Assembly: GCA_016235345.1 (NCBI GenBank)
Contig: JACRLG010000028.1
Span: 1-64,000, forward strand
Reading direction: 5' to 3'
Source: Deltaproteobacteria bacterium
GTDB lineage: Bacteria > Desulfobacterota > Desulfobacteria > Desulfobacterales > Desulfatibacillaceae
Length of the DNA: 64,000 nt
This document shows positions 19,119 to 35,664 of this stretch, piece by piece. The stretch's first letter is position 1; each line of letters opens with the position of its first letter. Below the pieces are notes generated by a model, which was not told the origin of the DNA, ran no database searches, and saw nothing but the letters and a program-made list of their open reading frames with translations. The position numbers were made by a program, and so were the translations under genes.

Positions 19119-19125
19119 ACCATTC

Positions 19126-19948: not shown

Positions 19949-19952
19949 AGCC

Positions 19953-20516
19953 ATGCACTTGAAAGGCGCACTCCACGTACACACCACCTGCTCGGACGGC
20001 ACCCTGTCCATAAAGGAGGCCGTGGAAGCCCACGAGGCCCAGGGCTTTGACTTCATGGCCCTCACAGACCATGATTTTCTGATGCGCAAGGGCTGCTACG
20101 ACGTTGTTTCGCGCCTTCGCACGGACATGATAATTTTTCTGGGCGAGGAGATCATGTTCCACGAGAAGGGCTACATCCACATAAACCGGGTGCAGGGCGA
20201 CCGGGAAGTTCTCCACGTTTTCAACCATCCGTCGGAGCTTGGGCTTCCGGTTCCCCAGACCATCGAGCGCATGAGGGCAGTTTCCGAAAAACTGCGCCTG
20301 GATGCGGTTGAAATCACCACCAGGGGCTTTTACACGAAGGAATTCGACGTCCCAGAAGTATGGCTTAAAAAGATCGCAACGGACGACTCCCACGAGCGCC
20401 ACATGATAGGACGCGCCTGGGTGGAGATGGACGCCCCGCGCGACAAGGACGCAATTTTGCGGGCCATAAAAAACGGGGATTTCTGGAACTGCTTCGCATC
20501 GAGAAGGCACAGATAA
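19953..20516 (+). CDS. PHP-domain (polymerase/histidinol-phosphatase-like) metal-dependent phosphoesterase.
   Basis: LHVHTTCSDG and ALTDHD motifs. Start assigned to ATG 19953 (MHLKGALHVHT). Confidence 0.7.
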   Translation: MHLKGALHVHTTCSDGTLSIKEAVEAHEAQGFDFMALTDHDFLMRKGCYDVVSRLRTDMIIFLGEEIMFHEKGYIHINRVQGDREVLHVFNHPSELGLPVPQTIERMRAVSEKLRLDAVEITTRGFYTKEFDVPEVWLKKIATDDSHERHMIGRAWVEMDAPRDKDAILRAIKNGDFWNCFASRRHR

Positions 20517-20557
20517 ATATCTTTGTGGCTCTGAACTATTTTCAGCAAAGCGCTTTT

Positions 20558-20623
20558 CCTGGGAGCGCGGGCGTCCCGCCCGCTTTTGCAGCGTAATGCG
20601 GGCGGGACGCCCGCGCTCCCAGG
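20558..20623. promoter_or_regulatory. Long perfect GC-rich hairpin (26-bp stem, 14-nt loop): a putative terminator or regulatory structure.
   Basis: CCTGGGAGCGCGGGCGTCCCGCCCGC ttttgcagcgtaat GCGGGCGGGACGCCCGCGCTCCCAGG, between the PHP gene and the thiolase gene. Confidence 0.4.
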
Positions 20624-20752
20624 GTAAAAGTTTCCTGTCCATTTTACGGCAAAGTTGAGAATAGCATAAAGCCACGAAGATTTTTTCGGAAGGGCGCGAC
20701 AATCCGCGCCATTTTTCAATCACTGGCATAAAAGGCTTCGGAGGGTTCAACC

Positions 20753-21892
20753 ATGAACAAAGTCGGCATCTGCGCGGTTGCGCAAGGTCCCTTTGAACGG
20801 AACACCTGGCACGAGCGCTTCCAGGGCATGGCCATGCCCGTACTGGAATCGCTCCTTTCGCAAACCGGCCTCGACTTCGCCGAAGACACGGGCATAAACG
20901 TCATCGTCTCCTGCTCGGACGACGTTTTCGACGCCCGCACCATTTCGGACAACGGCATGACCGATGTTCTGGGCGGCCACATGCGCTGCGAGGAAAAGGT
21001 GGCCCAGGACGGCATCCAGGCGGTCTACTACGCATCAAGCATCATAATGAGCGGCTACACCGACGTGGTGCTGGTTTTGGGCCACTCGAAGGAATCCCAG
21101 GGCCAGAGCCGCAACATGGTGACGCACCTTGCCTTCGACCCATTCTACACAAGGCCTGTGGGGCTTGATTTCACGGCGGCGGCGGGGCTCCAGGCAAGGG
21201 CCTACGGAAAACTTTCCGGCGTCTCCGAAGAAGAACTCGCCGAAATCGTGGTGAGAAGCCGCGAGAACGCGAAGAGAAATCCGCACACCCAGGACCTTGC
21301 GCCTGTTTCGATGGACGACGTTCTTTCCTCCCCCATGCTGGCCGACCCCATCCGCCAGCTTCACGCCTACCCGGTATCGGACGGCGTTGTGGGAATGATC
21401 TTCGCTTCCGAGGAACGCGCCAAAAAACTCTGCAAGAACCCGGTCTGGGTCACGGGCCTGGGTAACTGCATGGACGGCTTCTTTCTGGGAGACCGGGACA
21501 TCGCCGACAACTTCGCTCTTAAAAAGGCGGCGGAGCGCGCCTACAAGCGGGCTGGAATCACCGACCCGGCCAAGGAAATCGACATCTTCGAGGTGTCCGA
21601 TCACTACGCCTACCAGCAGCCCATGTGGCTTGAGGGCCTGGGGCTCGCCGAAACCGGAAAGGGCCCGAAGTTCCTGGCACACGGAGGCAAGGACCGGGTG
21701 AATCCTTCGGGCGGGATGCTTGCCGGAAACCCCCTCATGCTGGGCGGCCTCGTTCGCGCGGCGGAAGCCGCCGTGCAGCTTAAAAATGAGGCCGGGGACA
21801 GGCAGATTCCGGGAGTGAAGAAGGCGCTCGCCCACGGAGTTATGGGGCCGGCGGGGCAGTTCCATGGCGTTGCGGTTTTATCAAAGGACTAG
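20753..21892 (+). CDS. Thiolase-like protein (SCP-x/Ltp-type; may be a non-canonical partner subunit).
   Basis: 379 aa thiolase fold lacking the canonical N-terminal active-site Cys context. Adjacent to a second thiolase-like gene. Confidence 0.75.
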   Translation: MNKVGICAVAQGPFERNTWHERFQGMAMPVLESLLSQTGLDFAEDTGINVIVSCSDDVFDARTISDNGMTDVLGGHMRCEEKVAQDGIQAVYYASSIIMSGYTDVVLVLGHSKESQGQSRNMVTHLAFDPFYTRPVGLDFTAAAGLQARAYGKLSGVSEEELAEIVVRSRENAKRNPHTQDLAPVSMDDVLSSPMLADPIRQLHAYPVSDGVVGMIFASEERAKKLCKNPVWVTGLGNCMDGFFLGDRDIADNFALKKAAERAYKRAGITDPAKEIDIFEVSDHYAYQQPMWLEGLGLAETGKGPKFLAHGGKDRVNPSGGMLAGNPLMLGGLVRAAEAAVQLKNEAGDRQIPGVKKALAHGVMGPAGQFHGVAVLSKD

Positions 21893-21903
21893 GAGGAATA
21901 ACG

Positions 21904-23094
21904 ATGAGCAAACACAAGAAAAACCGCAACGTGGGCGTCGTGGGGGTGGGCATGTCGGTCTTTTCCAGCCACCGCGAGGAAGTGAACCAGCCTGAAATGA
22001 TTTTCGAGGCAGTGGCCGAGGCCCTCAAAAACGCCGGAATAACCATGGATGACGTTGATTGCGTGGTTCACGGCAACATGGAGCTTTTTGAAATGGTCCA
22101 TCAGCCGGACCTCTGGCACACCCTCGGCACGGGCTCGCGCGGGAAGGAAGTCTTGCGGGTCACCACCGGCGGCACCACCGGCGCGACCCTGGTCTGCGCG
22201 GCGGACGCCCTGGTTGCCTCCGGGCTTCATGACATAGTGCTGGCCATCGGCTTCGAAAAGCTCCAGGAAGGCCACACCACGGGCGGCATCACCAATATGG
22301 CGGATCCCTTGTGGGCGCGCCAGCTTCAGACCGGGGCTCTCACCGGCATGACTGCAGCCGACATGATAGAGGAGTTCGGCGAGGAGAGGGCCAAGAAGGT
22401 TTCCATGCGTTACCGCATCCTCATGGATGAAAACTGCATGAAAAACAGGAAGGCCCACCGCCGCCTTGGCCTCACCATGGATCAGGCCGACGATCTTGCG
22501 GTCAACTCCCCGGCCCTGGTGGGCGAGCTTCGCATGATCCACATGTGCTCCCAGAGCGACGGGGCCTGCGCCATGATCTTCGCCTCCGAGGAAAAGGCGA
22601 AACAGCTCTGCAAGCGGCCCGCATGGATAAAGGACCACATCACGGTCCACCGGGAGGAGATGTTCTGCATCTTCGGCGATGCCCCATACAAGACCACCAT
22701 GCGATACGCCGCCGAAAAGCTCTTTGAGCGCAACGGCGTGAAAAATCCGGTTGAGGAATTCGACGTTTTCGAGATGTACGACCCCTCCTCCTGGTGGGCC
22801 ACCGACTGGCTGCGGGAGTTCCTGCTTCTCGAAGGCGACCAGCACCTGAAAATGGTGGAAAACGACGAGATCGCCATAAACGGGAAACTGCCCATAAACC
22901 CGTCGGGAGGCGTCATCGGTTCCAACCCCATCGGGGCCACGGCAATGGTGAGGGTAGCGGAGGCCGCCATGCAGATAATGGGAACAGCCGGGGAGCACCA
23001 GGTTCCGCACGAAGTCAACAAGGCCCTTGCATCGGGCTTCGGCGGCACCATGTGGACGGTCCTGTTCATTTTAACCAGCGAAGTTCCCCAATAG
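21904..23094 (+). CDS. Thiolase-like protein (SCP-x/Ltp2-type).
   Basis: 396 aa thiolase fold (GVVGVGMS, NPSGG, GATAMV). Confidence 0.8.
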   Translation: MSKHKKNRNVGVVGVGMSVFSSHREEVNQPEMIFEAVAEALKNAGITMDDVDCVVHGNMELFEMVHQPDLWHTLGTGSRGKEVLRVTTGGTTGATLVCAADALVASGLHDIVLAIGFEKLQEGHTTGGITNMADPLWARQLQTGALTGMTAADMIEEFGEERAKKVSMRYRILMDENCMKNRKAHRRLGLTMDQADDLAVNSPALVGELRMIHMCSQSDGACAMIFASEEKAKQLCKRPAWIKDHITVHREEMFCIFGDAPYKTTMRYAAEKLFERNGVKNPVEEFDVFEMYDPSSWWATDWLREFLLLEGDQHLKMVENDEIAINGKLPINPSGGVIGSNPIGATAMVRVAEAAMQIMGTAGEHQVPHEVNKALASGFGGTMWTVLFILTSEVPQ

Positions 23095-23113
23095 GCGAAG
23101 GGAGGAAGATAAC

Positions 23114-26100
23114 ATGAATCTTGGAAATTACCTGGACGAGGCGGTCAGGAAGTACGCCCAAGTGCCCTACCTTCGCTTTTACGACGAGACCGTCACCTAC
23201 GCCGAATTCGGGCGAAGGGTGAACGTCCTTGCCAACGCCCTTAAAAAGCACGGCGTGAAAAAGGGCGATTTCATTCATGTCCTGGTGCAGAACAGCCCCT
23301 ACACCCTGGTGAGCTATTTCGCCATAATGAAGATTGGCGCGGTGGCGGGCCCCATCAACGGCTGGTGGAAGGCCAAGGAAGTCGAGTATCTGTTGAACGA
23401 CTCCCAGGGCCCCGGCCTCATCATCGAGGACCAGTATCTCGATATTTTGAAGGAAATCCGGCCCAACTGCCCCAATCTCAAAACCGTCATCCAGGTTAAC
23501 GGGGAAATCCTGCCGGGCCACCTCGATTTCGACGCCCTCCTTGCCGAAGGCGACGAGACCCCTGTCGTCTGCGAGGCAGCGCCCGACGACGACGCCTACA
23601 TTTTCTACACCTCCGGCACCACCGGAAACCCCAAGGGCGTGCTTTTGGCCCACAAGAGCGTTCTCGCCGACATCAACGGAGTGAACGCGGCGCTCAACAC
23701 CGAAGAAGGCATGGTGGTTCTCATCTTCCTGCCCCTTTTCCACGTGAACGCCATGCTCTCCACAAGCTCCTCCATGCAGAAGGGAAACACGGTGGTGCTT
23801 CGGAAGCAGTTTTCGGCGTCCGAATTCTGGGAGGTGGTGGATAAGTTCAAGGTCAATTTCTGGAGCGCGGTCCCGGCGGTTTACCAGATACTTTTAAAAG
23901 ACCCCGGTCGCCAGAAGTTCGATCTCTCAAGCCTCAAGTTCGGCGTCTGCGGCGCGGCCCCGCTTTCTACCGAGACCATGAACGAATTCCAGGCCACCTT
24001 CAACATCCCCATAGTCGAAGGCTACGGACTCACCGAGGCCACCTGCGTCTCCACCATCAACCCCCGCGACGGCGTGCGCAAAATCGGCTCCATCGGCCTG
24101 GCCCTTCCCGGCCAGGAGGTGAAAATCCTGGACCCGGACGGAAAAGAGTGCCCGCCGAACGTTCCGGGCGAAATCTGCATAAAGGGTGACGTTGTGATGA
24201 AGTGCTATTACAACCGCCCGGAAGCAACCGCAGAGACCATAAAGGACGGGTTCCTGCACACGGGCGACGTGGCCTACAAGGATGATGACGGCTACATCTT
24301 CATAGTGGACCGCATAAAGGACATGATCATCCGTGGTGGCGAGAATATCTACCCCAAGGAAATCGACAACGTGGTGATGGGCCACCCGAAAGTGGCCGAG
24401 GCCGCAACCGTTGGCGTTCCCGACAAGACCATGGGCGAGGAGGTCCAGGTCTTCATAGTGCCGCGCGAGGACGACATCACCGAAGAGGAAATCATCGAGC
24501 ACTGCAAAAAGCACTTGGCGTCCTTCAAGGTCCCGAAATACGTCACCTTTTTGTGGGACGAGGACATGCCGCGTAACGCCGTCGGCAAGACCCTCAAAAA
24601 GGAACTTCGCCAATACGGAACAGCCCCCCGGCCCAAGAAAACCGGAGGCCCTGTCGTAACAGTGGCCGACATCTTCGGTACCATGGAAAGCCGGGTCAAC
24701 CCCGAAGGCGTGGCGGGAATCACCGCCAACTACGGCTACATAATTACCGGCGAGGGCGGCGGCGAGTACACGGTCTCGGTGAAAGACGGAGTGGTGAAGG
24801 TACTCTCCGGCATAGTCGACCCCGGCGTCACCACCATGGTGGCTGCCAAGGACTGGATAGCGATAACCCTGGGAACCCTGGACGGCATGACGGCGTTCAC
24901 ATCCGGCAGGCTCAAGGTTGAGGGCGATTTCGGCCTTCTGACAAAGGCAACCAAGTTCTTCAAGAAATACACGCCGCCCGCTGCGGCCCCCCAGGCAACG
25001 GTTGCCGACATCTTCGGAACAATGGAGTCCCGCGTCAATCCCGAAGGCGTGGCCGGAATCACCGCCAACTACGGCTACATCATAACCGGCGAGGGCGGCG
25101 GCGAGTACACGGTTTCGGTGAAGGACGGCGCGGTGAAGGTTCTCTCCGGCATAGTCGATCCCGGCGTCACCACCACCGTTTCCGCCAAGGACTGGATCGC
25201 CATCACCCTTGGAAAACTGGACGGCATGACAGCCTTCACCTCAGGTCGCCTGAAGGTGGAGGGAGACTTCGGACTTCTTCCCAAGGCCACCAAGTTCTTC
25301 AAGAAATACGCTCCGCCCGCCCCGGTTGCCGAAGCCACCGTGGCAGACATCTTCGGAACAATGGAGTCCCGCGTCAACCCCGAAGGCGTTGCCGGGATAA
25401 CCGCCAACTACGGCTATATGATCACCGGCACGGGCGGCGGCGAGTACACCGTGTCGGTGAAGGACGGCGCGGTCAAAGTTCTTTCCGGCATCGTCGATCC
25501 CCAGGTGACCACAACCTGCTCGGCCAAGGACTGGATCGCCATTACCCTTGGGAAACTGGACGGCATGACCGCCTTCACCTCAGGGCGCTTAAAGGTTGAG
25601 GGCGATTTCGGACTTCTCACAAAGGCCACCAAGTTCTTCAAGAAGTACGCCCCGCCAAGCGCTGCGGCCGACGAGCCCAAGGATGAGCTGATCGTCCTCA
25701 AGCAGGTCCTTTCCATTCCCCAGAAGTTCTCCACAGGACCCGTGATGGGAAAATTCCTGAGGAGCCTTAAGGACAAGAAAATAATCGCCAACAAGTGCCC
25801 GAAATGCGGACGCCTCCAGCTTCCCGCCCGCGAAGCCTGCGCCGAGTGCCGCGTTCGCGCCACCGACTGGGTGGAGGTCGGCCCGGAAGGCGTCCTCACC
25901 ATCACGGACGTGGCCTTCTACGCCTCGCCCGACCCTCTCACCGGCGACACCCGCGAGACGCCCTACTGCGCCGCCCACATCCTTCTGGACGGCTGCAAGG
26001 ACCACGAAACCCTTTGGCACGAGCTGAACCCGGACGACATAGGCCGCGCCAAAAAGGGAATGCGCGTGAAACCCGTGTGGGACGACAAGCGCAAAGGAGC

Positions 26101-26137
26101 GATAACGGACATAAAGTACTTTACGCTAATTGACTGA
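23114..26137 (+). CDS. Fusion protein: AMP-dependent acyl-CoA synthetase, three tandem SCP2 sterol-carrier domains and a C-terminal DUF35 (Zn-ribbon and OB-fold) domain.
   Basis: YTSGTTGNPKG, GYGLTE and the GDVAYKDDDGYIFIVDRIKD adenylation motifs. Three 113-aa repeats (ADIFGTMESRVNPEGVAGITANYGY..TAFTSGRLKVEGDFGLLTKATKFFKKY) match the SCP2 fold. C-terminal CPKCGRLQLPAREACAEC plus an OB region equals DUF35. Confidence 0.85.
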   Translation: MNLGNYLDEAVRKYAQVPYLRFYDETVTYAEFGRRVNVLANALKKHGVKKGDFIHVLVQNSPYTLVSYFAIMKIGAVAGPINGWWKAKEVEYLLNDSQGPGLIIEDQYLDILKEIRPNCPNLKTVIQVNGEILPGHLDFDALLAEGDETPVVCEAAPDDDAYIFYTSGTTGNPKGVLLAHKSVLADINGVNAALNTEEGMVVLIFLPLFHVNAMLSTSSSMQKGNTVVLRKQFSASEFWEVVDKFKVNFWSAVPAVYQILLKDPGRQKFDLSSLKFGVCGAAPLSTETMNEFQATFNIPIVEGYGLTEATCVSTINPRDGVRKIGSIGLALPGQEVKILDPDGKECPPNVPGEICIKGDVVMKCYYNRPEATAETIKDGFLHTGDVAYKDDDGYIFIVDRIKDMIIRGGENIYPKEIDNVVMGHPKVAEAATVGVPDKTMGEEVQVFIVPREDDITEEEIIEHCKKHLASFKVPKYVTFLWDEDMPRNAVGKTLKKELRQYGTAPRPKKTGGPVVTVADIFGTMESRVNPEGVAGITANYGYIITGEGGGEYTVSVKDGVVKVLSGIVDPGVTTMVAAKDWIAITLGTLDGMTAFTSGRLKVEGDFGLLTKATKFFKKYTPPAAAPQATVADIFGTMESRVNPEGVAGITANYGYIITGEGGGEYTVSVKDGAVKVLSGIVDPGVTTTVSAKDWIAITLGKLDGMTAFTSGRLKVEGDFGLLPKATKFFKKYAPPAPVAEATVADIFGTMESRVNPEGVAGITANYGYMITGTGGGEYTVSVKDGAVKVLSGIVDPQVTTTCSAKDWIAITLGKLDGMTAFTSGRLKVEGDFGLLTKATKFFKKYAPPSAAADEPKDELIVLKQVLSIPQKFSTGPVMGKFLRSLKDKKIIANKCPKCGRLQLPAREACAECRVRATDWVEVGPEGVLTITDVAFYASPDPLTGDTRETPYCAAHILLDGCKDHETLWHELNPDDIGRAKKGMRVKPVWDDKRKGAITDIKYFTLID
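24661..25680 (+). repeat. Intragenic tandem repeat, three units of 339 bp (about 90% nucleotide identity) encoding the three SCP2 domains.
   Basis: Units begin near 24664, 25003 and 25343. The repeated minus-strand artefact ORFs (MAVIPATPSGLTR...) recur at the same 339-bp period. Confidence 0.8.
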
Positions 26138-26138
26138 C

Positions 26139-26255
26139 AGCCCGTCTAAAAACGCGAACTGACAGTGCCAGAGCTTCAAAGCCAATTCCGCCACGTACTT
26201 TCAGTACGCTTGCTCATTGGCTTATCGCTCTCCTTGCATTTCATCGTTTTTATCC
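26139..26255 (+). repeat. Intergenic palindromic repeat element, copy C (subfamily 1).
   Basis: Starts 2 nt after the stop codon at 26137 and contains the AAGCCAATTCCGCCACGTAC...CATTGGCTT hairpin core. Confidence 0.7.
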
Positions 26256-26305
26256 AGGCTGTAATCCAAGCCTTTTGGGGACGGCTGTTAAAAGGAGGAA
26301 ATGAC

Positions 26306-27202
26306 ATGAGTCAGGAACATAGAGACTGCTTCGTGGTGGCTGGCAAGCTCGCCCTTCCCTACCAGTATTTTGCGGGAAGCACGGGGTCGAAGTTCATCAC
26401 AACGCTTAGGGACAAGAAACAGATTCTCGGAGTCAGGTGCGACAAGTGCAACAAGGTTTTCGTTCCGCCCCGCAAAAACTGCGAGGTCTGCCTGTCGCCT
26501 ACCGGCGACAACTGGGTTGAACTGAAGGACACCGGCACGGTGGTCAACTGGACCGTCATCCGCTACGCCGAGCCGCACCAGCCCGTTGCGCCGCCATACA
26601 TTCTGGCCCTCATCAAGCTGGACGGCGCCGACACGCCCTTCGCCCACATAGTGACGGGCATCGCCGCCAGCCAGATGAAGGAAGGCCAGAGGGTCAAGGC
26701 CCGCTTCGCCAAAAAGACCACCAACACCATCATGGACATAGAATGCTTCAGGCCGCTCCCGCCCAAATTCCAGGTGGGCTACACCTACGACGAGCTTGAA
26801 ATCGGCATGTCCGCAAGTTTCACCAAGACCATCACAGAGACCGACGTCTACCTTTTCGCGGGCATTTCGGGCGACTTCAACCCCATGCATCTTAATGAGG
26901 AATTCGCAAAGCTTACGCCCTTCGGCACCCGCATAGCCCACGGAGCCCTTCCCCAGAGCCTCATCGCAAGTGTTCTGGGCATGAAGCTTCCGGGCCTTGG
27001 CACGGTGGCCCTTGAAATCAACACGCGCTTTCTCGGCCCCACCTACTTCGGCGACACGGTGACAGCCTCCGCCGAAGTTGTGGAAAAGCTCGAAAAAAAG
27101 CGCTGGGTGCGTCTCAATCTTTCCTGGACCAACCAGAAGGATCAATTGATCGGCACGGGCACAGCCTTGGTCATACCTCCCGCCCCCGTGCAGACCGACT
27201 AA
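26306..27202 (+). CDS. DUF35 (Zn-ribbon and OB-fold) - MaoC-like (R)-hydratase fusion, ChsH2-like.
   Basis: N-terminus CDKCNKVFVPPRKNCEVC plus OB fold. C-terminal hot-dog motifs FAGISGDFNPMHLNEEFA and IAHGAL. RBS AAAGGAGGA precedes ATG 26306. Confidence 0.8.
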   Translation: MSQEHRDCFVVAGKLALPYQYFAGSTGSKFITTLRDKKQILGVRCDKCNKVFVPPRKNCEVCLSPTGDNWVELKDTGTVVNWTVIRYAEPHQPVAPPYILALIKLDGADTPFAHIVTGIAASQMKEGQRVKARFAKKTTNTIMDIECFRPLPPKFQVGYTYDELEIGMSASFTKTITETDVYLFAGISGDFNPMHLNEEFAKLTPFGTRIAHGALPQSLIASVLGMKLPGLGTVALEINTRFLGPTYFGDTVTASAEVVEKLEKKRWVRLNLSWTNQKDQLIGTGTALVIPPAPVQTD

Positions 27203-27308
27203 AAACGCGAATCGCTGTGTCAGAGCAAAGCGGGCGGGTCGTCATGTACGGCAAGTACTATTCCTCCCCGCCCGCTTCACTCTTCCTTGCGCTTCATCGT
27301 TTTTATCC
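27196..27308 (+). repeat. Intergenic palindromic repeat element, copy D (subfamily 2).
   Basis: GACTAAAAACGCGAA overlaps the stop codon of the upstream gene. Core GGGTCGTCATGTACGGCAAGTACTATTCCTCCCCGC. Confidence 0.7.
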
Positions 27309-27364
27309 GGTCTGCATGTGAATGCCTCCGGGCAGCAGTCCGATTAGTCATGGGGTTTTCCATT

Positions 27365-28531
27365 ATGGGGGGCTTGTCCATGATCGATTTTAAAAGCATC
27401 GCCCGCGATTTGAAGGCGGGCAGGCCCCCGGCCCTGGGGGATTTTCCGCCCCGGATGCTGGATTTTTTCGCCGAAGCGGCGAGTCTGCGGGGCAAATTCT
27501 CCACCCTTTCCAATCTCGAACGCCTCACATGCTGCATAAGGCACAAATCGCCCGACCGGGTTCCGGTTACGCCCCTGGCCAATGCCGCATCCAGGCAGAT
27601 TCTCGGAATCAGCTTCCCCGATTACTCCCAAAAAGCGGAATCAGCAGCCGACTGCTTCATGGCGGGGCTTAATCTCCTGGGCGGGGACATGGCGGTGCTT
27701 CTCGTTGATCTTTCGGTGGAAGCCGAGGGCTTCGGCCAGAAGATAATTTATCCGCTCAATTCCACCGCCCGTCCCGACTACGGCGATCCTGTGGTCAAAT
27801 CAACCGACGATTACGAAAAAATCCGCCCGGTCCTGCTTGAAAATTCAAAGCGGATGAAAGAATTCGTGAAGCTGTGCGAAATAATGGTCGCCCGCTGCGG
27901 ATTTTCCTATATGGTGAGCGGCTTCGTCTTCGGGCCGCTTGGGGTTCTGGCCATGATGCGCGGGGCCGAGCACCTTTTTAAAGACTGCGTGCTTCACCCC
28001 AAAAAAGTGATGAAGGCCCTTGAGGCGATAACCGAGACCCTTTGCGAATTCACCCAGGCCCAGTGCGACGCGGGCGTGGGCGCAATCGCCATAGACACCC
28101 TTTTCGCCTCCTATAACGGGCTTTCCAAGGAGCTTTGGGAGAAAATCGAAGGCCCTTTTGCGAGGGAAATCGCCCAGGTCATCAAGCGAAACGGCAGGGT
28201 CGTGGGCATCCACAACTGCGGCCACGGCATCTATTTCGACGCCCAGATAAGAAGCATGGAGCCTGAACTCATCAGCTTCGCCCATCTTCCGGACGACTGC
28301 GCAACCGAGCGCGACCTCGTGGAGCGCTACGGCGACTCCATCACCCTTGTGGGCTGCGTTCCCACCCCCCTCCTGATTCACGGAACGCCCCAAGAGGTCA
28401 TGGACGAGAGCCGAAGGCAAATCGACGTTTTCGGAAAAAACGGCGGCTTCGTGCTTGCCCCCGGCTGCGAGTATCCCCCCAACGTCCCCCTTGTGAACGC
28501 CCTGGCCCTGGTCAGGGCCGCAACGTCGTGA
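27365..28531 (+). CDS. Uroporphyrinogen-decarboxylase-family methyltransferase (MtaA/MtbA-like methylcobamide methyltransferase). Start uncertain; candidates are 27350, 27365, 27380 and 27455.
   Basis: URO-D fold with the C-terminal GGFVLAPGCEYPPNVPLVNALALV typical of MtaA/CmuA-like enzymes. Confidence 0.65.
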   Translation: MGGLSMIDFKSIARDLKAGRPPALGDFPPRMLDFFAEAASLRGKFSTLSNLERLTCCIRHKSPDRVPVTPLANAASRQILGISFPDYSQKAESAADCFMAGLNLLGGDMAVLLVDLSVEAEGFGQKIIYPLNSTARPDYGDPVVKSTDDYEKIRPVLLENSKRMKEFVKLCEIMVARCGFSYMVSGFVFGPLGVLAMMRGAEHLFKDCVLHPKKVMKALEAITETLCEFTQAQCDAGVGAIAIDTLFASYNGLSKELWEKIEGPFAREIAQVIKRNGRVVGIHNCGHGIYFDAQIRSMEPELISFAHLPDDCATERDLVERYGDSITLVGCVPTPLLIHGTPQEVMDESRRQIDVFGKNGGFVLAPGCEYPPNVPLVNALALVRAATS

Positions 28532-28541
28532 GGAGAGAGCT

Positions 28542-29201
28542 ATGAAACAAGTGGTTTCGTATGAAGCTGTTTCTTCCGACATCGCCCGCGCCGTGGCTTT
28601 GAGGGACTCGGAAAAACTGGACAGCCTTGTCATCACCGCCAAAAATGCTGACATGCCCAAACATGATGCAATGGCGGCCCTCACACGCGGCATCGAAGTG
28701 GCCAGGGGCGAATTTTCGGCAAACCGCCTTGCAATCCCTGAATTTCTGATCTGCCTTGATCTTATGAACGAGGCGATGGACGCTTTTTCCGATCTGCCCG
28801 ACTCCGGGCCTTCACTGATAAATCGGCCCCGCATGGTGATAGGAGTTGCGGAAGGCGACGTTCACGACCTCGGCAAAAACGTGGTGGCGGCTGTCTGCCG
28901 GGCCTATGGTTTTGAGGTGACTGACCTTGGCCGCGACGTTACGCCTGCGGTTTTCATCAATGCGGTGAAGAAAACGGAAGCTCACGTTCTGGCGGTTTCG
29001 GCCATGATGTCCACTCCTTTGAACGCCATGCGGGAGACCGTGGCGCTGTGCCGAAGGGAATGCCCGGAAACCCTTGTTTTCGTCGGCGGGGCCGCAGTTG
29101 ACGAAAAGCTCGCCCTTGGCATGGGAGCAAACGCCACGGCGGTAAACGCGGCTCTTCTGCCCGGAGTCTTTTCAAAGCTCAGGCTTCTTCCGTCTCCCTG
29201 A
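28542..29201 (+). CDS. Cobalamin (B12)-binding corrinoid protein.
   Basis: B12-binding_2 helical cap plus a Rossmann domain with the DxHxxG motif (GDVHDLGKN) and SAMMST. Confidence 0.8.
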   Translation: MKQVVSYEAVSSDIARAVALRDSEKLDSLVITAKNADMPKHDAMAALTRGIEVARGEFSANRLAIPEFLICLDLMNEAMDAFSDLPDSGPSLINRPRMVIGVAEGDVHDLGKNVVAAVCRAYGFEVTDLGRDVTPAVFINAVKKTEAHVLAVSAMMSTPLNAMRETVALCRRECPETLVFVGGAAVDEKLALGMGANATAVNAALLPGVFSKLRLLPSP

Positions 29202-29223
29202 AAAACCCAAGGAGGAAACTTAC

Positions 29224-29868
29224 GTGAAAATCCGCAAAAGAATGATCGCCGCCTTGATTGCGCTTGCGGCGCTTCTCTTTCTCATGGCCGCTCCCGTGCT
29301 GTCCGGGGCTCCTTCCTACCTCCCCATTGACGGCGACATAATCTTCCAGACCTCAAAATCATCCCAAAGCCGCCTGGTGCAGACGGCCACGGCCTCCCCC
29401 TTGAGCCATATGGGGCTTGTGTTCATCGAAAAGGGGCGTCCGGTGGTGTACGAGGCGGTAGGCCCGGTCAGGGTCATGCCCTTAAAGGACTGGATCAAAA
29501 GGGGGGAAGGGGAAAAATTCGAGGTGAAGCGCCTGAAAAACGTGAAAGAGCTTCTGAAGGCGTCGGCTGTAAGGAAGTTGAAGGCATCCGCCCGCACTTT
29601 TCTCGGCAAAAATTACGACGCCCGTTTCCAGTGGAGCGATGAGAGCATCTACTGCTCCGAACTGGTGTGGAAGGCTTATGACAGGACGCTTGGCATTAAG
29701 CTTTGCCCCTTGAAAAAAATGAAGGATTTCAACCTGGCTGACAAGGCCGTGAAAACCGAGCTTGAAAAACGCCACAACGGGCGAATCCCCATGGACGAAC
29801 CAGTCGTAGCGCCGGTGGACATTTACCGTTCAAAGCTCCTTGTAACAGTGGTCGGCAAGGCTTCATAA
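29224..29868 (+). CDS. YiiX-family permuted papain-like (DUF830) protein with a signal peptide.
   Basis: N-terminal signal sequence, GDIIFQ and SHMGLV motifs, and YCSELVWKAY with a conserved Cys, resembling YiiX-like enzymes. Confidence 0.55.
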   Translation: MKIRKRMIAALIALAALLFLMAAPVLSGAPSYLPIDGDIIFQTSKSSQSRLVQTATASPLSHMGLVFIEKGRPVVYEAVGPVRVMPLKDWIKRGEGEKFEVKRLKNVKELLKASAVRKLKASARTFLGKNYDARFQWSDESIYCSELVWKAYDRTLGIKLCPLKKMKDFNLADKAVKTELEKRHNGRIPMDEPVVAPVDIYRSKLLVTVVGKAS

Positions 29869-29921
29869 CATGTCTTTATAATTGTCTTTTCCGTGGGGGG
29901 ACAGCCCATCAGGAGGATAAA

Positions 29922-31082
29922 ATGTCTTTCGAGTTCAGCACCAAGGCAGGATGCCAGGAGTACTTCACCAAGGCCCACGAGATGTTTCGGAAGGCCGTGG
30001 CGGATTTCGTGAAAAAGGAGATACTCCCTTTTGTGGATGAGTGGGAGGAGGCGGGCGAGTTTCCCCGCGAGCTTTACAAAAAGGCCGGTGACGCGGACAT
30101 ATTATCCATCTGCTACCCTGAGGATGTGGGCGGAACACCGGCTGACGTGTTTTTCGCGGTAACGCTCACCGAAGAGCTGATGAAATGCACCTCGGCGGGG
30201 CTTGTGGCAAGCCTGGGAAGCCACGGGATCTCGATTCCGCCCATAGTGCGCCACGGAACGCCGGACCAGAAAAAGCGCTTCGTGGAGCCGGTTTTGAGGG
30301 GCGAGAGGATTTCCGCCCTTGGAATCACGGAGCCGGGGGGCGGCTCGGACGTCGCCAACATCCAGACAACAGCCTTGCGCGAGGGCGATTTCTACTTGGT
30401 GAACGGCTCCAAAACCTTCATCACCTCCGGCTGCCGGGCGGACCAGATAACGACAGCGGTGCGTACTGGCGGGCCGGGTCACGCCGGAATCAGCTTTCTT
30501 CTCATCGAAACGAACACCCCCGGTTTCAAGGTGGGGGCGAAACTCAAAAAGATGGGCTGGTGGGCCTCGGACACCGCAGAGCTTTATTTCGACAACTGCA
30601 GGGTTCCGGCTGAAAACCTTATCGGCGCGGAAAACGGCGGGTTTTACATCATAATGGAAAACTTCCAGACCGAGCGGCTTTCCCTTGCCATAATGGCCAA
30701 TACCACCAGTGAAATCGCGCTCAACGAGGCGCAGAAGTACGCAAAGGAGCGCCACGCATTCGGAAAGCCAATTTCTGCCTTCCAGGTGACACGGCACAAG
30801 CTGGCGGACATGGCCACCCTTTTGACCGCAAGCAAGGAATTCACCTACCGGGTGGCGGCCAAAATCGACGCGGGCCAGAACATGGTGAAGGAAGTTAGCA
30901 TGGCCAAGAACTTCGCCTGCTCGGTAGCCGACAAGGTGACGTACGACGCGGTGCAGATTTTCGGCGGCGCGGGCTACATGCGCGGAACAGTGGTGGAGAG
31001 GCTTTTCCGCGACAACCGCATTCTTTCCATCGGCGGCGGAACCCAGGAGATAATGAAGGAGATCATCTCGAAACTCATGTGA
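29922..31082 (+). CDS. Acyl-CoA dehydrogenase.
   Basis: 386 aa ACAD (GITEPGGGSDV, IFGGAGYMRGTVVERLFRDNRILSIGGGTQEI). Confidence 0.9.
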   Translation: MSFEFSTKAGCQEYFTKAHEMFRKAVADFVKKEILPFVDEWEEAGEFPRELYKKAGDADILSICYPEDVGGTPADVFFAVTLTEELMKCTSAGLVASLGSHGISIPPIVRHGTPDQKKRFVEPVLRGERISALGITEPGGGSDVANIQTTALREGDFYLVNGSKTFITSGCRADQITTAVRTGGPGHAGISFLLIETNTPGFKVGAKLKKMGWWASDTAELYFDNCRVPAENLIGAENGGFYIIMENFQTERLSLAIMANTTSEIALNEAQKYAKERHAFGKPISAFQVTRHKLADMATLLTASKEFTYRVAAKIDAGQNMVKEVSMAKNFACSVADKVTYDAVQIFGGAGYMRGTVVERLFRDNRILSIGGGTQEIMKEIISKLM

Positions 31083-31102
31083 CGGGTGGTTTTTCCCATC
31101 GG

Positions 31103-31148
31103 AAAAAAATGCCGGGGCCCGACGTTTCGGGGCTCCGGCATTTTTTTC
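31103..31148. terminator. Bidirectional rho-independent terminator between convergent genes.
   Basis: AAAAAAATGCCGG..GC-rich hairpin..CCGGCATTTTTTT, with an A-run and a T-run flanking a 13-bp outer stem. Confidence 0.6.
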
Positions 31149-31174
31149 GCCAGCCGTCCGTTCTCCCGGCCGCG

Positions 31175-33349
31175 TCATTCGGCGAACCACTTGAGCCAGA
31201 CAACCGCCACCGCCAGGACCAACATGAGGATGCCCGTCAGCCAGTAGGCCAGGGTGTGCTTCTCCTCGGCGTAGGGGTCGTTCATAAGCCTTTCAGCCCC
31301 GGCGGGGAGCTTGGCGAGGGAAGTCAGGCTGTGGCCGAAGGCGATGTTGATCTTGGCCCTTGTGTTCACCGCCCAGCCGGACGCGTCCAGAAGCGGCCCA
31401 AGGTTCCTCTGGCGCAATTTAAGCCACGCCATGAGCATTGAAGGCCCTGAAATCAGGAGAATAATTCCGATCAACGCAATGGGCATCTTCCACCAGGAAA
31501 GGGCCATGAAGCCGGTCACCACCGAGGCTATGGCGGTGCCTATGGCACCCACCGCAAGACCGATGGCTGCGAAGATTCCGGCGAAGCGGGCCACGTCGAA
31601 GGGGGCGGGAAGAGCTCCGGGCTTGGGCGCGGGTTTTGACTCCTCCAACTTTTTACCGGCATCGGCGATTTTTGCGGCCCCCGCGTCCCCTACGGCCTTG
31701 TCCTTGGCCGCCGCGAACTTATCCACCTGCTCGCCTATCATGCGGGCGACCCGCTTGTAGGGAGCGAAAAACGCCTGCCTGATGCTTATGGGATGCTCCA
31801 CTATCTTCACTATGGTTGCGTCCCAGTCATTGCCGGCCTTGTCGTAGAACACCCCGTTCCGGCCCACCATCAACTGGTCGCCGTCGCCGTTGGTCACCGC
31901 TCCCGCGATGGTCATTTTGGCGTCTGAGCCTTTGCGTGTGCAGTCGCAATAGGCCAGGTACATGCGGCTCAAGCCCGCAAGCGCGCCGTGCTTTGCCATG
32001 TCGTGAACCTTCACGCAAAGGTCCAGGGCCTTGCCGTCAATGTAAAGTGTTCCGGCCTGAAAAACAGCCGTATCCAGCCCCTTGTAAAACTCGGCAAACG
32101 ACACGAAATTAGTAAGCAGCCTGTGAAGGTCGCGGGTGTAGCGCACCAATCGTTTTACGGAAGAGACCGACTCGAATTCGACCTTTTTGGCCTCGTCCAT
32201 TTCGATCAAGGAAATTATGGCTTCTCTTACCCCGCCTTCAATAATCTCCCGAACCCTTTTGCGACCAAGCTTTTCAACGGATGTTTCCACGCGCTTGGCT
32301 ATGGTTTCCTCGTAACGGGCAAATCGTGAAACAAGATCGCCAAACTCATTCTCGGTAAGGCTGTCTTTGGGACCGATGAGCGGAACCACGACTTTGGAGG
32401 AGAAATCCTTCATGGCGGCCAGAAACGCCGGGTTGACTCCCTCGAACATCGGCAGGGGGCGTCCGGGAGCCACTGGGGCAAGCGGGAAACGGGCGATGGA
32501 TGCAAGGGAGGCCGAAAGCTCCTCGCCCGATATCGCCTCGTAATCGGCGGGGGTAAGGTTCAGGGCCGCGCCCGCCTCGGCGTCGAAGCCCGCAAGGCGG
32601 CAGCGGATATAGTAGTCTTCAATCTTCGCCTTGACAGCCGTCAATGATGCGTGGGCGGCCCGGGTTTCCTCTCCGAGAATGAGAATGGCCCCGTTTTCCC
32701 TGTCCAGCTCGTCCCGCCAGGTCAAAAACGTTTCAGCCTCATCGAAAAAATTATACAAAAGCTCCCGGCTTACGCCAAGCTCGCCGGAGCGGTCGGTTTC
32801 GCCTCCCGCGCAGTTCAGAATATCCTTCATGGCGGCGGCAACCTTTGGATCTTCAACCGACGAAACCGGCACTATTCCGTCGCCGTTAAATCTGGCTTTG
32901 GCGAACAGCTCCTCGACATCGTCGATGTCTTCGGCGCTGATGGATGTGGCGTCGGGCTTTTCAAGGGTTTTCAGTATCTCCCTGGCGCTCGCGAGAACCG
33001 CCCTGCCCTCTTCGGTGTCGTCTTTTATGGAATCAAGGGGAAGCTCGGTAAGGCGCTTTACGAGATCGTCCGGGTTTTTCAGAAGGGATGAGGCCAGGCG
33101 CGCCGCCTCGATGACTTCGGGAACCCTTATGCGCCCATCGCCGTCGGTATCCATGAGGGATAGGGTCTCTTCATCGAATTCCAAGCCCTTCACCGGGCAG
33201 GCCAGGGCTGTCCAGAGCTTGGGATCGAGTTCTTTTAGGGCCGCGATGTCGCGCCCCGAATCCAGCATCACCTGGTCGAAACCGCCTAACCGGAAAAACC
33301 TGAACCTGTGACCCGCCCCGTTTTTTTTGAGAATCTCCATGATGGCCAA
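31175..33349 (-). CDS. Large hypothetical protein with an EF-hand-like Ca-binding motif and a C-terminal membrane anchor.
   Basis: 724 aa. DTDGDGRIRVPE loop and two or three C-terminal hydrophobic helices. No recognisable catalytic family. Confidence 0.6.
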   Translation of the reverse strand: MAIMEILKKNGAGHRFRFFRLGGFDQVMLDSGRDIAALKELDPKLWTALACPVKGLEFDEETLSLMDTDGDGRIRVPEVIEAARLASSLLKNPDDLVKRLTELPLDSIKDDTEEGRAVLASAREILKTLEKPDATSISAEDIDDVEELFAKARFNGDGIVPVSSVEDPKVAAAMKDILNCAGGETDRSGELGVSRELLYNFFDEAETFLTWRDELDRENGAILILGEETRAAHASLTAVKAKIEDYYIRCRLAGFDAEAGAALNLTPADYEAISGEELSASLASIARFPLAPVAPGRPLPMFEGVNPAFLAAMKDFSSKVVVPLIGPKDSLTENEFGDLVSRFARYEETIAKRVETSVEKLGRKRVREIIEGGVREAIISLIEMDEAKKVEFESVSSVKRLVRYTRDLHRLLTNFVSFAEFYKGLDTAVFQAGTLYIDGKALDLCVKVHDMAKHGALAGLSRMYLAYCDCTRKGSDAKMTIAGAVTNGDGDQLMVGRNGVFYDKAGNDWDATIVKIVEHPISIRQAFFAPYKRVARMIGEQVDKFAAAKDKAVGDAGAAKIADAGKKLEESKPAPKPGALPAPFDVARFAGIFAAIGLAVGAIGTAIASVVTGFMALSWWKMPIALIGIILLISGPSMLMAWLKLRQRNLGPLLDASGWAVNTRAKINIAFGHSLTSLAKLPAGAERLMNDPYAEEKHTLAYWLTGILMLVLAVAVVWLKWFAE

Positions 33350-33382: not shown

Positions 33383-34423
33383 TCATGGCCTTTCGATAAA
33401 CTCGATTCTGGCCTCCTCCCGCTTTACAATATTGTCAATTTTGCCCTGTGGCCAGCCGATGACGAGGCTGGTGATGATCTTGAACGGCTCTTCGATCTTG
33501 AGCATCTTTTTTAAGTCGGGAAAAAAGCTGATGGCCTTGGCAAGGCTCACGTAGCAGGTTCCGAGCCCCAGGGAGTGGGCCGCAAGAACCATGTTCTGGC
33601 CGCAAATGCCGATGTCGAGGTCAATGTCGCCGATGCCCCTTTTATCGGCCAGCAACAGCACCAGGCAGGGCGCGCCGAAAAAAATGTCGTAACCGGGGTC
33701 GGAGGATGCCGCGTTTATGCCGCCTCGCGCCCTTGGCTCGATCTCGCCGGTCTTGAGTTTTATCAGGAGCGGCAACACGGCCTGCTGCCAGGGGGCGAGG
33801 CTGGCCTTGGCGTCGCCCGGCGTCTTCTTGTTGATCCATGGGTGCGGCAGGGTGAGCCAGGACACCCAGTAAAGAGCTTTTTTGCATTTTTCGTTGATTT
33901 GGTCAATAAGGCCCCGGTCGTCCACAACCACGAATTTCCAGGGCTGGTTGTTTCCCGCCGACGGCGCGAAGCGGCCCGCCTCGATGACCCGCCTTATCAT
34001 CTCGCGGGAAACGGGCTTTTTACGGTACATGCGGTTGCTGCGCCTTTTGTATATGACCTTCTCCGTTTCCGTGAGAAGAGGTTCGATTTCATCAAAGGGC
34101 GTCTTTTCCATTCCGGCGATGGGCGCGGGCGGGGTTTTCCCGCCGGAAAACAGGTGATCGTTTTTCCAAAAGCCTTTTTCCACCCTGTAGTCGCCTTCTA
34201 TGTTAATTGCTCCCTGGGGGCATACCGCCGCGCAGTTCTGGCATGTTATGCAGCGGAAATGATCGTAGCGCCCGTTGGGGCGGCTCTTTTTTTCGAAAAG
34301 CTCCAGAAGCTGGATCGGGCAGGATTTCACGCACCTGCCGCAGCCGTTGCATTTTTCCGCATCCAGAACAAACCTTGCGTATTTTGCTTCGGGAAGATTC
34401 AGAAGCCTTATGTTTTCAAGCAT
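33383..34423 (-). CDS. Ferredoxin (2x[4Fe-4S]) - nitroreductase family fusion.
   Basis: CNGCGRCVKSCP and CITCQNCAAVCP cluster motifs followed by a nitroreductase fold (AGRFAPSAGNNQPWKFVVV). Confidence 0.8.
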   Translation of the reverse strand: MLENIRLLNLPEAKYARFVLDAEKCNGCGRCVKSCPIQLLELFEKKSRPNGRYDHFRCITCQNCAAVCPQGAINIEGDYRVEKGFWKNDHLFSGGKTPPAPIAGMEKTPFDEIEPLLTETEKVIYKRRSNRMYRKKPVSREMIRRVIEAGRFAPSAGNNQPWKFVVVDDRGLIDQINEKCKKALYWVSWLTLPHPWINKKTPGDAKASLAPWQQAVLPLLIKLKTGEIEPRARGGINAASSDPGYDIFFGAPCLVLLLADKRGIGDIDLDIGICGQNMVLAAHSLGLGTCYVSLAKAISFFPDLKKMLKIEEPFKIITSLVIGWPQGKIDNIVKREEARIEFIERP

Positions 34424-34758: not shown

Positions 34759-35664
34759 ATGGATTCGCCCCCGAAATGGTTCCGCATAGGGCAGTTGGAG
34801 AAGCTCTCAGGCGTCAACCGCCGCACCATCCATTTTTATCTCAAGGAAGGGCTTCTTCCGCCGCCCATGAAAACCGGCAAAACCATGTCCTATTACGACG
34901 AAACCCACCTTAAACGGTTGAAAGCCATAGCCGAATCCAAGGAGGAGGGCCTTCCCCTTTTCGCCATAAGGGAAAGGCTTTCGGAGATGGAGGAGGAAAA
35001 AAGCCGGACTCCTGCCCAGGTAAAAAACCCGTCATCCAAAAAGGCCCTGCCCAAAAGCGCCCAGGGCAACCGGACCCGCGAGGCCGTGCTTGAGCTGGGC
35101 TGTCGGCTTTTTCGCCAGAAGGGTTACAAGAACACCAAGGTTTCGGACATCACCAAGCGCCTTAACGTGGGCAAGGGAACGTTTTATTTTTATTTCACGG
35201 ATAAAAAGGAGCTTTTCCTTGAATGCGTTCCCAGGATTTTTGCCGAGATTTTTTCAACAGGCTGGGAAAAAATAGCAAAGGAAAACGATCCGGCCATAAG
35301 GCTCAAGATTCGCGGCCAGCTCGTCTGGCCGGTGCTTGGCGAATTCTGTTCCATCCTCTCCCTTTCCAAGGAGGCCATGGAGGACCCGGACCCCAAGCTC
35401 AGAAAACTGGGCGAGCAGATTTACGCCTCCATCTGGGGGCCGGTGGTGAGCGACATCAAAAAGGGCATCGCAATGGGGCGCTTCCGGCAGGTTGACCCAA
35501 AGGTGCACGCGTCCATCATAATAGGGGCAACCGAGGGCCTTCACCACCTTTTCAAGCACCACAAGGACGTGCCCGCCGGGGCTTACGACGACGCCATTTT
35601 TCATCTTTTCGCCAAGGGGATAATGACCGACGCCCCGGAACCCCCCGGAGAAGCCTTTGCCTGA
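34759..35664 (+). CDS. Transcriptional regulator, MerR-type HTH fused to a TetR-type HTH/ligand domain.
   Basis: N-terminal FRIGQLEKLSGVNRRTIHFYLKEGLL (MerR). A second HTH TREAVLELGCRLFRQKGYKNTKVSDITKRLNVGKGTFYFYF (TetR) comes after a linker. Confidence 0.75.
   Translation: MDSPPKWFRIGQLEKLSGVNRRTIHFYLKEGLLPPPMKTGKTMSYYDETHLKRLKAIAESKEEGLPLFAIRERLSEMEEEKSRTPAQVKNPSSKKALPKSAQGNRTREAVLELGCRLFRQKGYKNTKVSDITKRLNVGKGTFYFYFTDKKELFLECVPRIFAEIFSTGWEKIAKENDPAIRLKIRGQLVWPVLGEFCSILSLSKEAMEDPDPKLRKLGEQIYASIWGPVVSDIKKGIAMGRFRQVDPKVHASIIIGATEGLHHLFKHHKDVPAGAYDDAIFHLFAKGIMTDAPEPPGEAFA

Follow-up and report, generated by a model that had tools for sequence, protein, structure and literature searches.

We analysed a 64,000-nucleotide stretch of contig JACRLG010000028.1 (assembly GCA_016235345.1, positions 1 to 64,000 of the forward strand), hereafter the window, from a Deltaproteobacteria bacterium assigned to the Desulfatibacillaceae. 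It contains a gene for an enzyme of the uroporphyrinogen decarboxylase (URO-D) fold, similar to the Methanosarcina methyltransferase MtaA, followed by a gene for a corrinoid (B12-binding) protein. This pair is probably a self-contained methyl-transfer module resembling MtsA/MtsB, directed at sulfur-bound methyl groups, which was inserted together with a YiiX-like gene into an acyl-CoA operon and stands outside the pathway encoded there. The gene arrangement described in an earlier note on this DNA is confirmed: the corrinoid gene lies directly after the MtaA-like gene, with a 10-nt gap, both genes are intact, on the + strand and matched by Pfam models, and their flanks are a DUF35-MaoC hydratase on one side and a YiiX-like protein and an acyl-CoA dehydrogenase (ACAD) on the other, as assigned by Pfam and NCBIfam.

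An MtaA-like enzyme with a predicted His-Cys-Cys zinc site

The enzyme was placed by hidden Markov model (HMM) scores, profile-to-PDB matches and a fold search. Its open reading frame (ORF) matches Pfam URO-D (E=7.4e-54, 183.5 bits) and scores 113.7 bits with the mtaA_cmuA model TIGR01463, below the MtaA/CmuA family cutoff of 235.4; the MtaA and MtbA equivalog models give 77.8 and 77.3 bits, against cutoffs of 400 and 600. The sole solved structure reached by a search with the enzyme sequence was MtaA of Methanosarcina mazei (4ay7, E=3e-9). A profile built from 22 family members aligned with the same structure over its full length (61.8 bits, E=5e-16), with CdmB, the chloromethane first-step methyltransferase (MT1), only partially (28 bits, E=1e-5) and with HemE (2eja) at E=0.0056 only. 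The AlphaFold model (pLDDT 89, pTM 0.90) again had MtaA 4ay7 as its top Foldseek match (TM 0.85, 22% identity), followed by HemE structures at 15–19% identity with scores nearly as good and, more distantly, by MetE structures. The family also has an N-terminal extension of its own, about 40 residues long.

The ORF extends from a TTG at 27287 to 28531, and in-frame ATG codons at 27350, 27365 and 27380 offer alternative starts. The earlier note had used 27365; ATG 27380 is probably the true start, because the N-termini of relatives of 382–386 aa align with residue 1 of the product from that codon and a G-run lies 7–13 nt 5' of it. The 97% identical protein P0001 covers 100% of the resulting 383-aa product.

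Three residues of the predicted zinc motif, H278 and C280 (H-x-C) and C363, are invariant across the 22 family members, and the segments that hold them, IHNCGH and APGCEYPP, correspond in the alignment to LHICGN and APGCGIAP of MtaA 4ay7. Within the superfamily, a His-Cys-Cys sphere marks S-methyltransferases, while O-demethylases substitute the Cys ligands (Kountz and Balskus, PMC10418091), and CdmB contains no zinc (PMC13222342). The site predicted for the enzyme has the S- or Se-methyltransferase pattern and not that of O-demethylases. One of the activities suggested in the earlier note, methyl transfer to an acceptor thiol, would fit this invariant motif.

A methyltransferase-type corrinoid carrier

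Pfam B12-binding matches the second protein (E=2.7e-22, 79.3 bits), and the DxHxxG motif recognized in the earlier note is DVHDLG at residues 106–111, the signature of His-on binding. Across 60 corrinoid proteins of the family, the positions with at least 90% conservation are all retained in this protein, and the family HMM gives it 241.8 bits. It scores 101.8 bits with TIGR02370, below the curated cutoff of 215.3, and falls far under the cutoffs of the named equivalogs MtbC, MtaC and MtgC. Its best solved relatives, 4jgi (1e-21) and 1y80 (8e-20), are both methyltransferase corrinoid proteins; a trimethylamine corrinoid protein and MtaC complete a top group with E-values of 1e-21 to 1e-16, and the 4jgi alignment spans residues 31–204, taking in the N-terminal helical part. 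MetH follows at 4e-11 and mutase subunits at 7e-5 or worse. The 10-nt gap between the enzyme stop codon and the corrinoid ATG contains the Shine–Dalgarno sequence GGAGAGAG, and the two genes are therefore translationally coupled.

Two outcomes had been named in the earlier note as ones that would refute it, namely that the enzyme is a genuine HemE or that the B12 protein serves an acyl-CoA mutase as its small subunit. HemE shares the URO-D fold and its structures score near MtaA in Foldseek, and an acyl-CoA setting would suit a mutase. However, the hemE model TIGR01464 gives only 37 bits against a cutoff of 302.95, and the zinc motif is foreign to HemE. Mutase-type HMMs give the B12 protein 30–41 bits, below their cutoffs, and its mutase matches among solved structures are far weaker than the 1e-21 reached with methyltransferase carriers. 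The Pfam scans of the window revealed no mutase large subunit; they covered the ORFs of at least 180 aa judged to be coding, to the exclusion of overlapping antisense ORFs, while three thiolase-like ORFs and a PaaK-like ORF were covered by NCBIfam only. Judged by these scores, both cases are excluded, and we regard either as extremely improbable: the B12 protein has the features of a methyltransferase-type carrier.

A cassette conserved mainly in Desulfobacterota

A scan of one genome per GTDB species gave 281 loci, hosted mostly by Desulfobacterota with some Actinomycetota, and 80 of them were retrieved for neighbourhood analysis. Identity to the enzyme ranges from 57 to 97% among the relatives listed (at least 120). 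Hundreds of relatives lie at 57–66%, mainly in Desulfobacterales and Desulfatibacillum, including Desulfatibacillum alkenivorans AK-01. When the family profile was run against 1.84 billion representative proteins, 115 representatives were matched at E<=1e-30 and 1678 at E<=1e-10; all matches listed (150 representatives) exceed 61.8 bits, the score of MtaA 4ay7 in the PDB search with the same profile.

The corrinoid gene follows the enzyme gene in 64 of the 76 assessable loci, a pairing far above chance, and a third gene, here called ACT, follows in 39 of 68. The window has the enzyme-then-carrier order of this cassette and lacks the third gene. Two loci (L014 and L078) combine two enzymes and two carriers with a single ACT. 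Several metagenome-assembled genomes (MAGs) hold two separate loci, and paralogous cassettes occur as L010/L024, L031/L034, L051/L052 and L014/L071. Beyond these genes no neighbour is conserved across the 80 loci, whether a second methyltransferase, a transporter or a folate enzyme. What surrounds the cassette changes from locus to locus; examples are PAS sensor kinases together with sigma-54 activators, proteins with CCG domains, ferredoxin-like proteins, aldehyde:ferredoxin oxidoreductase (AOR), iron-containing alcohol dehydrogenase (Fe-ADH), proteins of the HGD-D/BcrAD type, a protein resembling MerB and a GCV_T-SHMT fusion. Our search of the literature on Desulfatibacillum and other sulfate reducers found no paper describing the cassette.

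Some of these neighbourhoods are unusual in their own right. An 886-aa fusion of a GcvT-type folate-binding aminomethyltransferase with SHMT lies directly upstream of the cassette in L033 (L033:7106-9766) and in L036, which hints at a folate link in some family members. A protein of the MerB (alkylmercury lyase) family is encoded directly upstream in L031 (L031:3540-4391) and in the paralogous L034 of the same Desulfococcus MAG. L047 and L051 have two corrinoid genes and no ACT; around them lie genes for HGD-D-type proteins, BcrAD/BadFG ATPases and a CdhC-like fragment, and the products of these genes may together supply electrons in another, ATP-driven way. L052 has an HGD-D protein only. A distant subgroup of 346-aa URO-D proteins (L076, L079 and L084; 45–48% identity) occurs without a corrinoid gene, between CobW, CbbQ-type AAA and VWA proteins, and probably has a different function. 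In three relatives of 636–696 aa (P0251, P0332 and P0338), the URO-D domain is the C-terminal half, and these may be fusions with another module. A tyrosine-phosphatase-like protein encoded at 38985–39629 of the window has a 26% identical counterpart directly upstream of the D. alkenivorans AK-01 cassette; such a neighbour was seen at Desulfatibacillum loci only, and we set it aside as coincidence.

A TM0269-like activation protein in most relatives

TM0269 of Thermotoga maritima (1j6r), a stand-alone protein that reactivates MetH, is matched by the ACT profile along almost its entire length (E=1.8e-24); matches to MetH activation domains are weaker, and ACT of D. alkenivorans AK-01 passes the Pfam PF02965 threshold with 29 bits. 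Its conserved segments, RFSPGYCDW and a C-terminal PCxxCxxxxCxxRR, contain four conserved cysteines without counterpart in TM0269, which suggests a metal or Fe-S site. Genes of this TM0269/MetH-activation-like type occur in L003 (L003:11900-12577), L005 and about 40 other loci, in each case on a corrinoid cassette that is not MetH.

Neither tblastn nor the ACT HMM run on the six-frame translation found ACT in the 64 kb window. Because the closest relatives after L007 (L008, L009 and L011–L013) all carry the gene, its absence from the window is a derived state. The Pfam scans of the main window ORFs found no MtaB/MttB-type or pterin-binding methyltransferase, no RamA/DUF4445 protein and no MetH-activation-type protein, and the earlier note's statement that a cognate MT1 and an activator are missing from the window agrees with this. 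A second-step methyltransferase (MT2) or an activating enzyme was seen neither in these ORFs nor in the neighbour clusters examined in relatives.

Two candidates for a substitute or a precedent were considered and dropped. The first is a protein encoded on the - strand of the window (33383–34423), a fusion of a two-[4Fe-4S] ferredoxin with a nitroreductase/BluB-like domain (BluB model 62 bits, under the cutoff). Its homologue adjoins the enzyme gene only in L061, where a 26% identical protein is encoded directly upstream, and L022 has a partial match; a role in cobalamin reduction is conceivable and unsupported. The second is the mec cassette, whose MecG/H we had considered as a precedent for a PF02965-type activator; the papers tie MecG/H to RamA-like and DUF1638 reactivation proteins and not to PF02965.

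The homology of ACT to TM0269 and to MetH activation domains raises the question of whether the family is a variant of corrinoid-dependent methionine synthase, its zinc barrel binding homocysteine, the methyl group coming from a donor linked to folate or to the corrinoid iron–sulfur protein, and the carrier being reactivated as in a split MetH. The URO-D fold is related to that of MetE, whose structures also turn up in the Foldseek results, and a precedent exists in core MetE enzymes that use methyl-corrinoid donors (PMC7857596, PMC7005905). We nevertheless consider this reading unlikely: several genomes hold at least two paralogous cassettes, PAS sensor kinases and sigma-54 activators are neighbours typical of inducible catabolism, no folate-binding module is conserved nearby and the family is nearer to MtaA than to MetE.

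A probable insertion in a conserved acyl-CoA operon

Homologues of the DUF35-MaoC fusion at 70–91% identity are widespread in Desulfobacterales, and we compared the operon of the window with three loci encoding close homologues. In L087, from a Desulfatibacillaceae MAG, two thiolase genes, a ligase-SCP2-DUF35 gene and DUF35-MaoC are followed after 132 nt by an ACAD gene whose product is 76% identical to the window ACAD, without the pair. L089 has the order ACAD-ACAD-TetR-PHP-thiolase-thiolase-ligase-MaoC, then an unrelated 182-aa gene and the orthologous ACAD (72% identity), also without the pair, and in L088 the cluster stops after MaoC. Among the 80 loci of enzyme relatives, the order MaoC, enzyme, carrier, YiiX, ACAD is found in L007 only (enzyme 83% identical). 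GC content at third codon positions (GC3) is 0.62–0.72 in the three inserted genes vs 0.76–0.80 in the flanking genes. Because relatives join DUF35-MaoC to ACAD and only L007 of the 80 loci shares the context, the simplest reading is that a 2.7 kb block with the genes for enzyme, carrier and YiiX-like protein was inserted into a conserved acyl-CoA operon at a junction that varies between loci; DUF35-MaoC belongs to this operon and not to the methyltransferase module. The suggestion in the earlier note that corrinoid chemistry takes part in beta-oxidation is not supported by this comparison. Since the juxtaposition of the genes stems, on this reading, from an insertion, B12 chemistry is not built into beta-oxidation; the pair is probably not a step of the pathway, and the acyl-CoA context would carry no functional meaning for it.

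The YiiX-like protein scores 232 bits with NF007458, above the cutoff of 216, and also matches Pfam Peptidase_C92. Its gene starts with a GTG, preceded by AGGAGG, 22 nt past the corrinoid stop codon, and sits where ACT sits in other loci. Among enzyme-related loci it was found in L007 only, and it was co-inserted with the pair but lies outside the methyltransferase system. The upstream edge of the inserted block is marked by a GC-rich hairpin just past the DUF35-MaoC stop codon; the region 27200–27385 folds with -76.7 kcal/mol (z = -5.35). Downstream of MaoC in L087, where the insertion is absent, an inverted repeat can likewise be read by eye. An Rfam scan of the whole window gave no match, and hence neither a cobalamin riboswitch nor any other RNA ahead of the pair, and a promoter and terminator pattern scan of 26000–31300 found no signal above shuffled expectation.

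Table 1. Positions of the pair and of the features that flank it in the window
Feature	Position	Strand	Basis
URO-D-fold, MtaA-like zinc corrinoid methyltransferase (predicted), 383 aa	27380..28531	+	Pfam, NCBIfam HMMs, AlphaFold/Foldseek, motif
Cognate corrinoid (B12-binding) protein, 219 aa, helical cap and Rossmann domain	28542..29201	+	Pfam, TIGR02370, PDB matches
DUF35 (zf-ChsH2 + OB)-MaoC hydratase fusion, upstream flank	26303..27202 (alternative start 26165)	+	Pfam
GC-rich hairpin, 11-bp stem AAGCGGGCGGG / CCCGCCCGCTT, just 3' of the DUF35-MaoC stop	27228..27277	+	Folding
YiiX-family permuted papain-like protein, N-terminal signal-like hydrophobic segment	29224..29868	+	NF007458, Pfam Peptidase_C92
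Acyl-CoA dehydrogenase (ACAD), downstream flank	29922..31082	+	Pfam ACAD domains

Once inserted, the pair could have been recruited into the acyl-CoA pathway of this lineage, either to remove or capture S-methyl groups from a methylthio-acyl-CoA or to detoxify methanethiol released by a hydratase. The methylmercaptopropionate (MMPA)-CoA route (DmdB/C/D), which frees methanethiol by means of a ligase, an ACAD and a hydratase, offers an analogy. The genes share one strand with short intergenic gaps and no convincing promoter or terminator, the arrangement is retained in L007, and His-Cys-Cys chemistry would suit a sulfur substrate. Yet the orthologous operons work without the pair, and the SCP2 repeats, DUF35 domains and Ltp-like thiolases point to bulky, hydrophobic acyl-CoAs rather than to MMPA. 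The co-inserted gene for a secreted YiiX-like protein suggests a patchwork, a strong hairpin lies between MaoC and the enzyme, and no such context was found in 78 of the 79 other loci. Co-option is accordingly improbable in our judgement.

O-demethylation, the other activity considered in the earlier note, is also weakened by the insertion. As an O-demethylase MT1, the enzyme would take methoxy groups off a substrate of the beta-oxidation cluster. The best solved relative of the carrier, 4jgi, is one that we take to be the carrier of a Desulfitobacterium O-demethylase (its database title is only 'Putative uncharacterized protein'), and MT1 enzymes of the URO-D fold do exist (PMC10418091, PMC13222342). 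However, the acyl-CoA context that would supply the substrate is the result of an insertion, and the invariant His-Cys-Cys pattern is that of S-methyltransferases (PMC10418091), the published O-demethylases and halomethane MT1 enzymes replacing or lacking the Cys ligands. The family profile spans MtaA fully but CdmB only partially and weakly, and neither an MT2 nor an ATP-dependent activator is present in the scanned window ORFs or conserved in relatives. We thus hold it to be highly unlikely that the enzyme is an O-demethylase.

The acyl-CoA operon itself (16657–27202 and 29922–31082) is of a conserved Desulfatibacillaceae type, comprising two ACADs, TetR, PHP, two Ltp-like thiolases, ligase-SCP2-DUF35, DUF35-MaoC and a further ACAD. 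It resembles gene sets for the cleavage of steroid or branched side chains, and its junction between MaoC and ACAD is a variable insertion spot. The ligase-SCP2-DUF35 protein (23114–26137, 1007 aa) fuses an AMP-dependent ligase with three tandem SCP2 units and a DUF35 zinc ribbon/OB region; the SCP2 units correspond to a 339-nt repeat (2.9 copies, 85% identity, 24658–25656). Its orthologues have 1005 aa (L087), 895 aa (L089) and 782 aa (L088), and the SCP2 copy number appears to vary.

Proposed mechanism

By analogy with MtaA, MtbA and MtsA, the His-Cys-Cys zinc site of the enzyme would bind and activate a sulfur (or selenium) atom, and the enzyme would pass a methyl group back and forth between this sulfur or selenium and the cobalt centre of the His-on carrier, which would alternate between Co(I) and CH3-Co(III). 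In MtsA, one URO-D-fold enzyme carries out both half-reactions, and with this precedent the separate MT1 that the earlier note had taken to be necessary need not be assumed. The logic of MtsA/MtsB is the most economical one because the pair has a single URO-D enzyme and relatives show no conserved second methyltransferase: the enzyme would move the methyl group of a methyl thioether to cobalt and then from cobalt to an acceptor thiol. Alternatively, the methyl group might be handed to an unlinked folate methyltransferase of the Wood–Ljungdahl pathway. In most relatives, the adjacent ACT protein would probably repair the Co(II) carrier by reductive remethylation dependent on S-adenosylmethionine (SAM), and its extra cysteines may, speculatively, bind a metal or an Fe-S centre through which electrons enter. 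In the organism of the window, the ACT function would come from elsewhere, if at all.

Several points weigh against an MtsA/MtsB-like sulfur module that stands apart from its surroundings. Sulfur chemistry is argued from one feature of the enzyme, the predicted zinc motif, and the enzyme is only 22% identical to MtaA, with an HMM score under the MtaA/CmuA cutoff. Our literature search found no biochemical or expression data for any family member. The two related loci that adjoin folate-type C1 enzymes (GCV_T-SHMT) may indicate a folate rather than a thiol acceptor. The short gaps, the single strand and the lack of a clear promoter or terminator make read-through with the acyl-CoA genes possible, a second genome (L007) has the same arrangement, and local co-option by the acyl-CoA operon is possible. 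Some related loci likewise have acyl-CoA genes nearby (ACAD, thiolase and enoyl-CoA hydratase); acyl-CoA genes are generally abundant in the genomes of those loci.

Comparison with known corrinoid systems

The closest parallels are MtaA/MtbA and MtsA/MtsB of Methanosarcina, which share with the pair a URO-D TIM barrel, an H-x-C...C site and a separate His-on carrier encoded adjacently, MtaA (4ay7) being the best match of the enzyme in both sequence and structure. They differ in the 22% identity, in an HMM score of about half the family cutoff, in the N-terminal extension found here and in the hosts, which here are bacteria of the Desulfobacterota and some Actinomycetota; to our knowledge, coenzyme M is not expected in those bacterial hosts. 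The activator of the relatives is moreover of the MetH type and not RamA.

MetH together with TM0269 (1j6r) offers a second comparison. ACT of the family is a full-length TM0269 homologue with the RxSPGY segment, and zinc barrel, cap and B12 domain plus activation module parallel a MetH without its folate domain. In contrast to MetH, the barrel is of the URO-D type and not a homocysteine domain, no folate domain is present and the window has no ACT; in contrast to TM0269, ACT of the family has four conserved cysteines (YCDW, PCxxCx4C).

Among bacterial systems, the type 1 mlp clusters combine MtaA-like His-Cys-Cys enzymes with a corrinoid protein and no folate methyltransferase (PMC10418091). 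They occur mostly in Firmicutes and have been proposed to serve methyl-sulfur or methyl-selenium metabolism (Kountz and Balskus, bioRxiv 2023, PMC10418091). To count as an Mlp, a protein has to exceed 25% identity to a coenzyme M methyltransferase, and a type 1 cluster requires two or more different Mlps (Mlp2, Mlp3) together with a RamA/RACE activase (PMC10418091). The pair is similar in that an MtaA-like His-Cys-Cys enzyme is joined to a corrinoid protein. Unlike such clusters, it has only one URO-D gene, whose product is 22% identical to MtaA, the scanned window ORFs include no DUF4445/RamA protein and the relatives have a PF02965-type protein instead; this comparison was made by sequence identity and gene content.

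The O-demethylase and halomethane systems MtvABC, OdmABCD, MtoABCD and CdmBCA likewise pair a methyltransferase of the URO-D fold with a small, adjacent corrinoid protein. They differ from the pair in having a pterin-binding MT2, usually an ATP-dependent activator, and an MT1 without His-Cys-Cys; here the Cys ligands are invariant, and neither an MT2 nor such an activator was seen in the scanned ORFs or among the relatives' neighbours examined. EmtABCD, which acts on estradiol in Denitratisoma, resembles the situation in the window in that a corrinoid methyltransferase occurs in a steroid or lipid catabolic setting, comparable to the SCP2/ChsH2-like flanks. Steroid methylation of the EmtAB type was rejected as a model for the pair: EmtA is MtmB-like and not of the URO-D fold, and hence has no homology with the enzyme (bioRxiv 10.1101/714501).

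Other features of the window

Several features lie apart from the pair and the acyl-CoA operon. A mobile or defence island at 205–6129 encodes HEPN (RiboL-PSP), GmrSD-N, a D5-like primase/helicase (DUF5906) and a tyrosine integrase, and GC content climbs from 42% to 54% across it. An 844-aa TIR and TPR protein is encoded at 13660–16194, in a block of 29% GC vs 55–60% elsewhere; the gene probably serves defence and arrived by horizontal transfer. Two overlapping ORFs make up DNA polymerase I, one for the 5'-3' exonuclease (10645–12033) and one for the 3'-5' exonuclease and polymerase (11903–13624); the cause could be a frameshift or a misassembly, or the gene could be truly split. A 724-aa protein encoded at 31175–33349 (- strand) has no Pfam or NCBIfam match, a C-terminal region that is hydrophobic and membrane-like by eye, and a conserved counterpart in the identical metagenome contig L001. 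A 301-aa regulator at 34759–35664 fuses a MerR-type to a TetR-type helix-turn-helix domain.

Significance

For the supposed link to beta-oxidation the outcome is deflationary, and the remaining interest lies in an uncharacterized family. The window holds one reduced, two-gene member of a cassette with 281 loci in species-representative genomes and no assigned function. Most relatives join a single MtaA-like enzyme to a MetH-type reactivator, a combination that we did not find described for corrinoid systems other than MetH. Corrinoid methyltransferases decide which methylated compounds anaerobes can use. The bacterial enzymes of anaerobic dimethylsulfide degradation, including those with which sulfate reducers turn over dimethylsulfide and methanethiol, have still to be identified (PMC10689795), and the cassette family is a candidate, and only a candidate, for the former role. 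A more far-reaching proposal would make the cassette the system by which sulfate reducers anaerobically demethylate dimethylsulfide, methanethiol and MMPA, with a MetH-type, SAM-dependent activator bearing a Cys-bound metal or Fe-S centre in place of RamA/RACE; we regard that proposal as doubtful. If the substrates are indeed sulfur-bound methyl groups, the family would be a marker for reactions of the sedimentary sulfur and C1 cycles that are still little understood.

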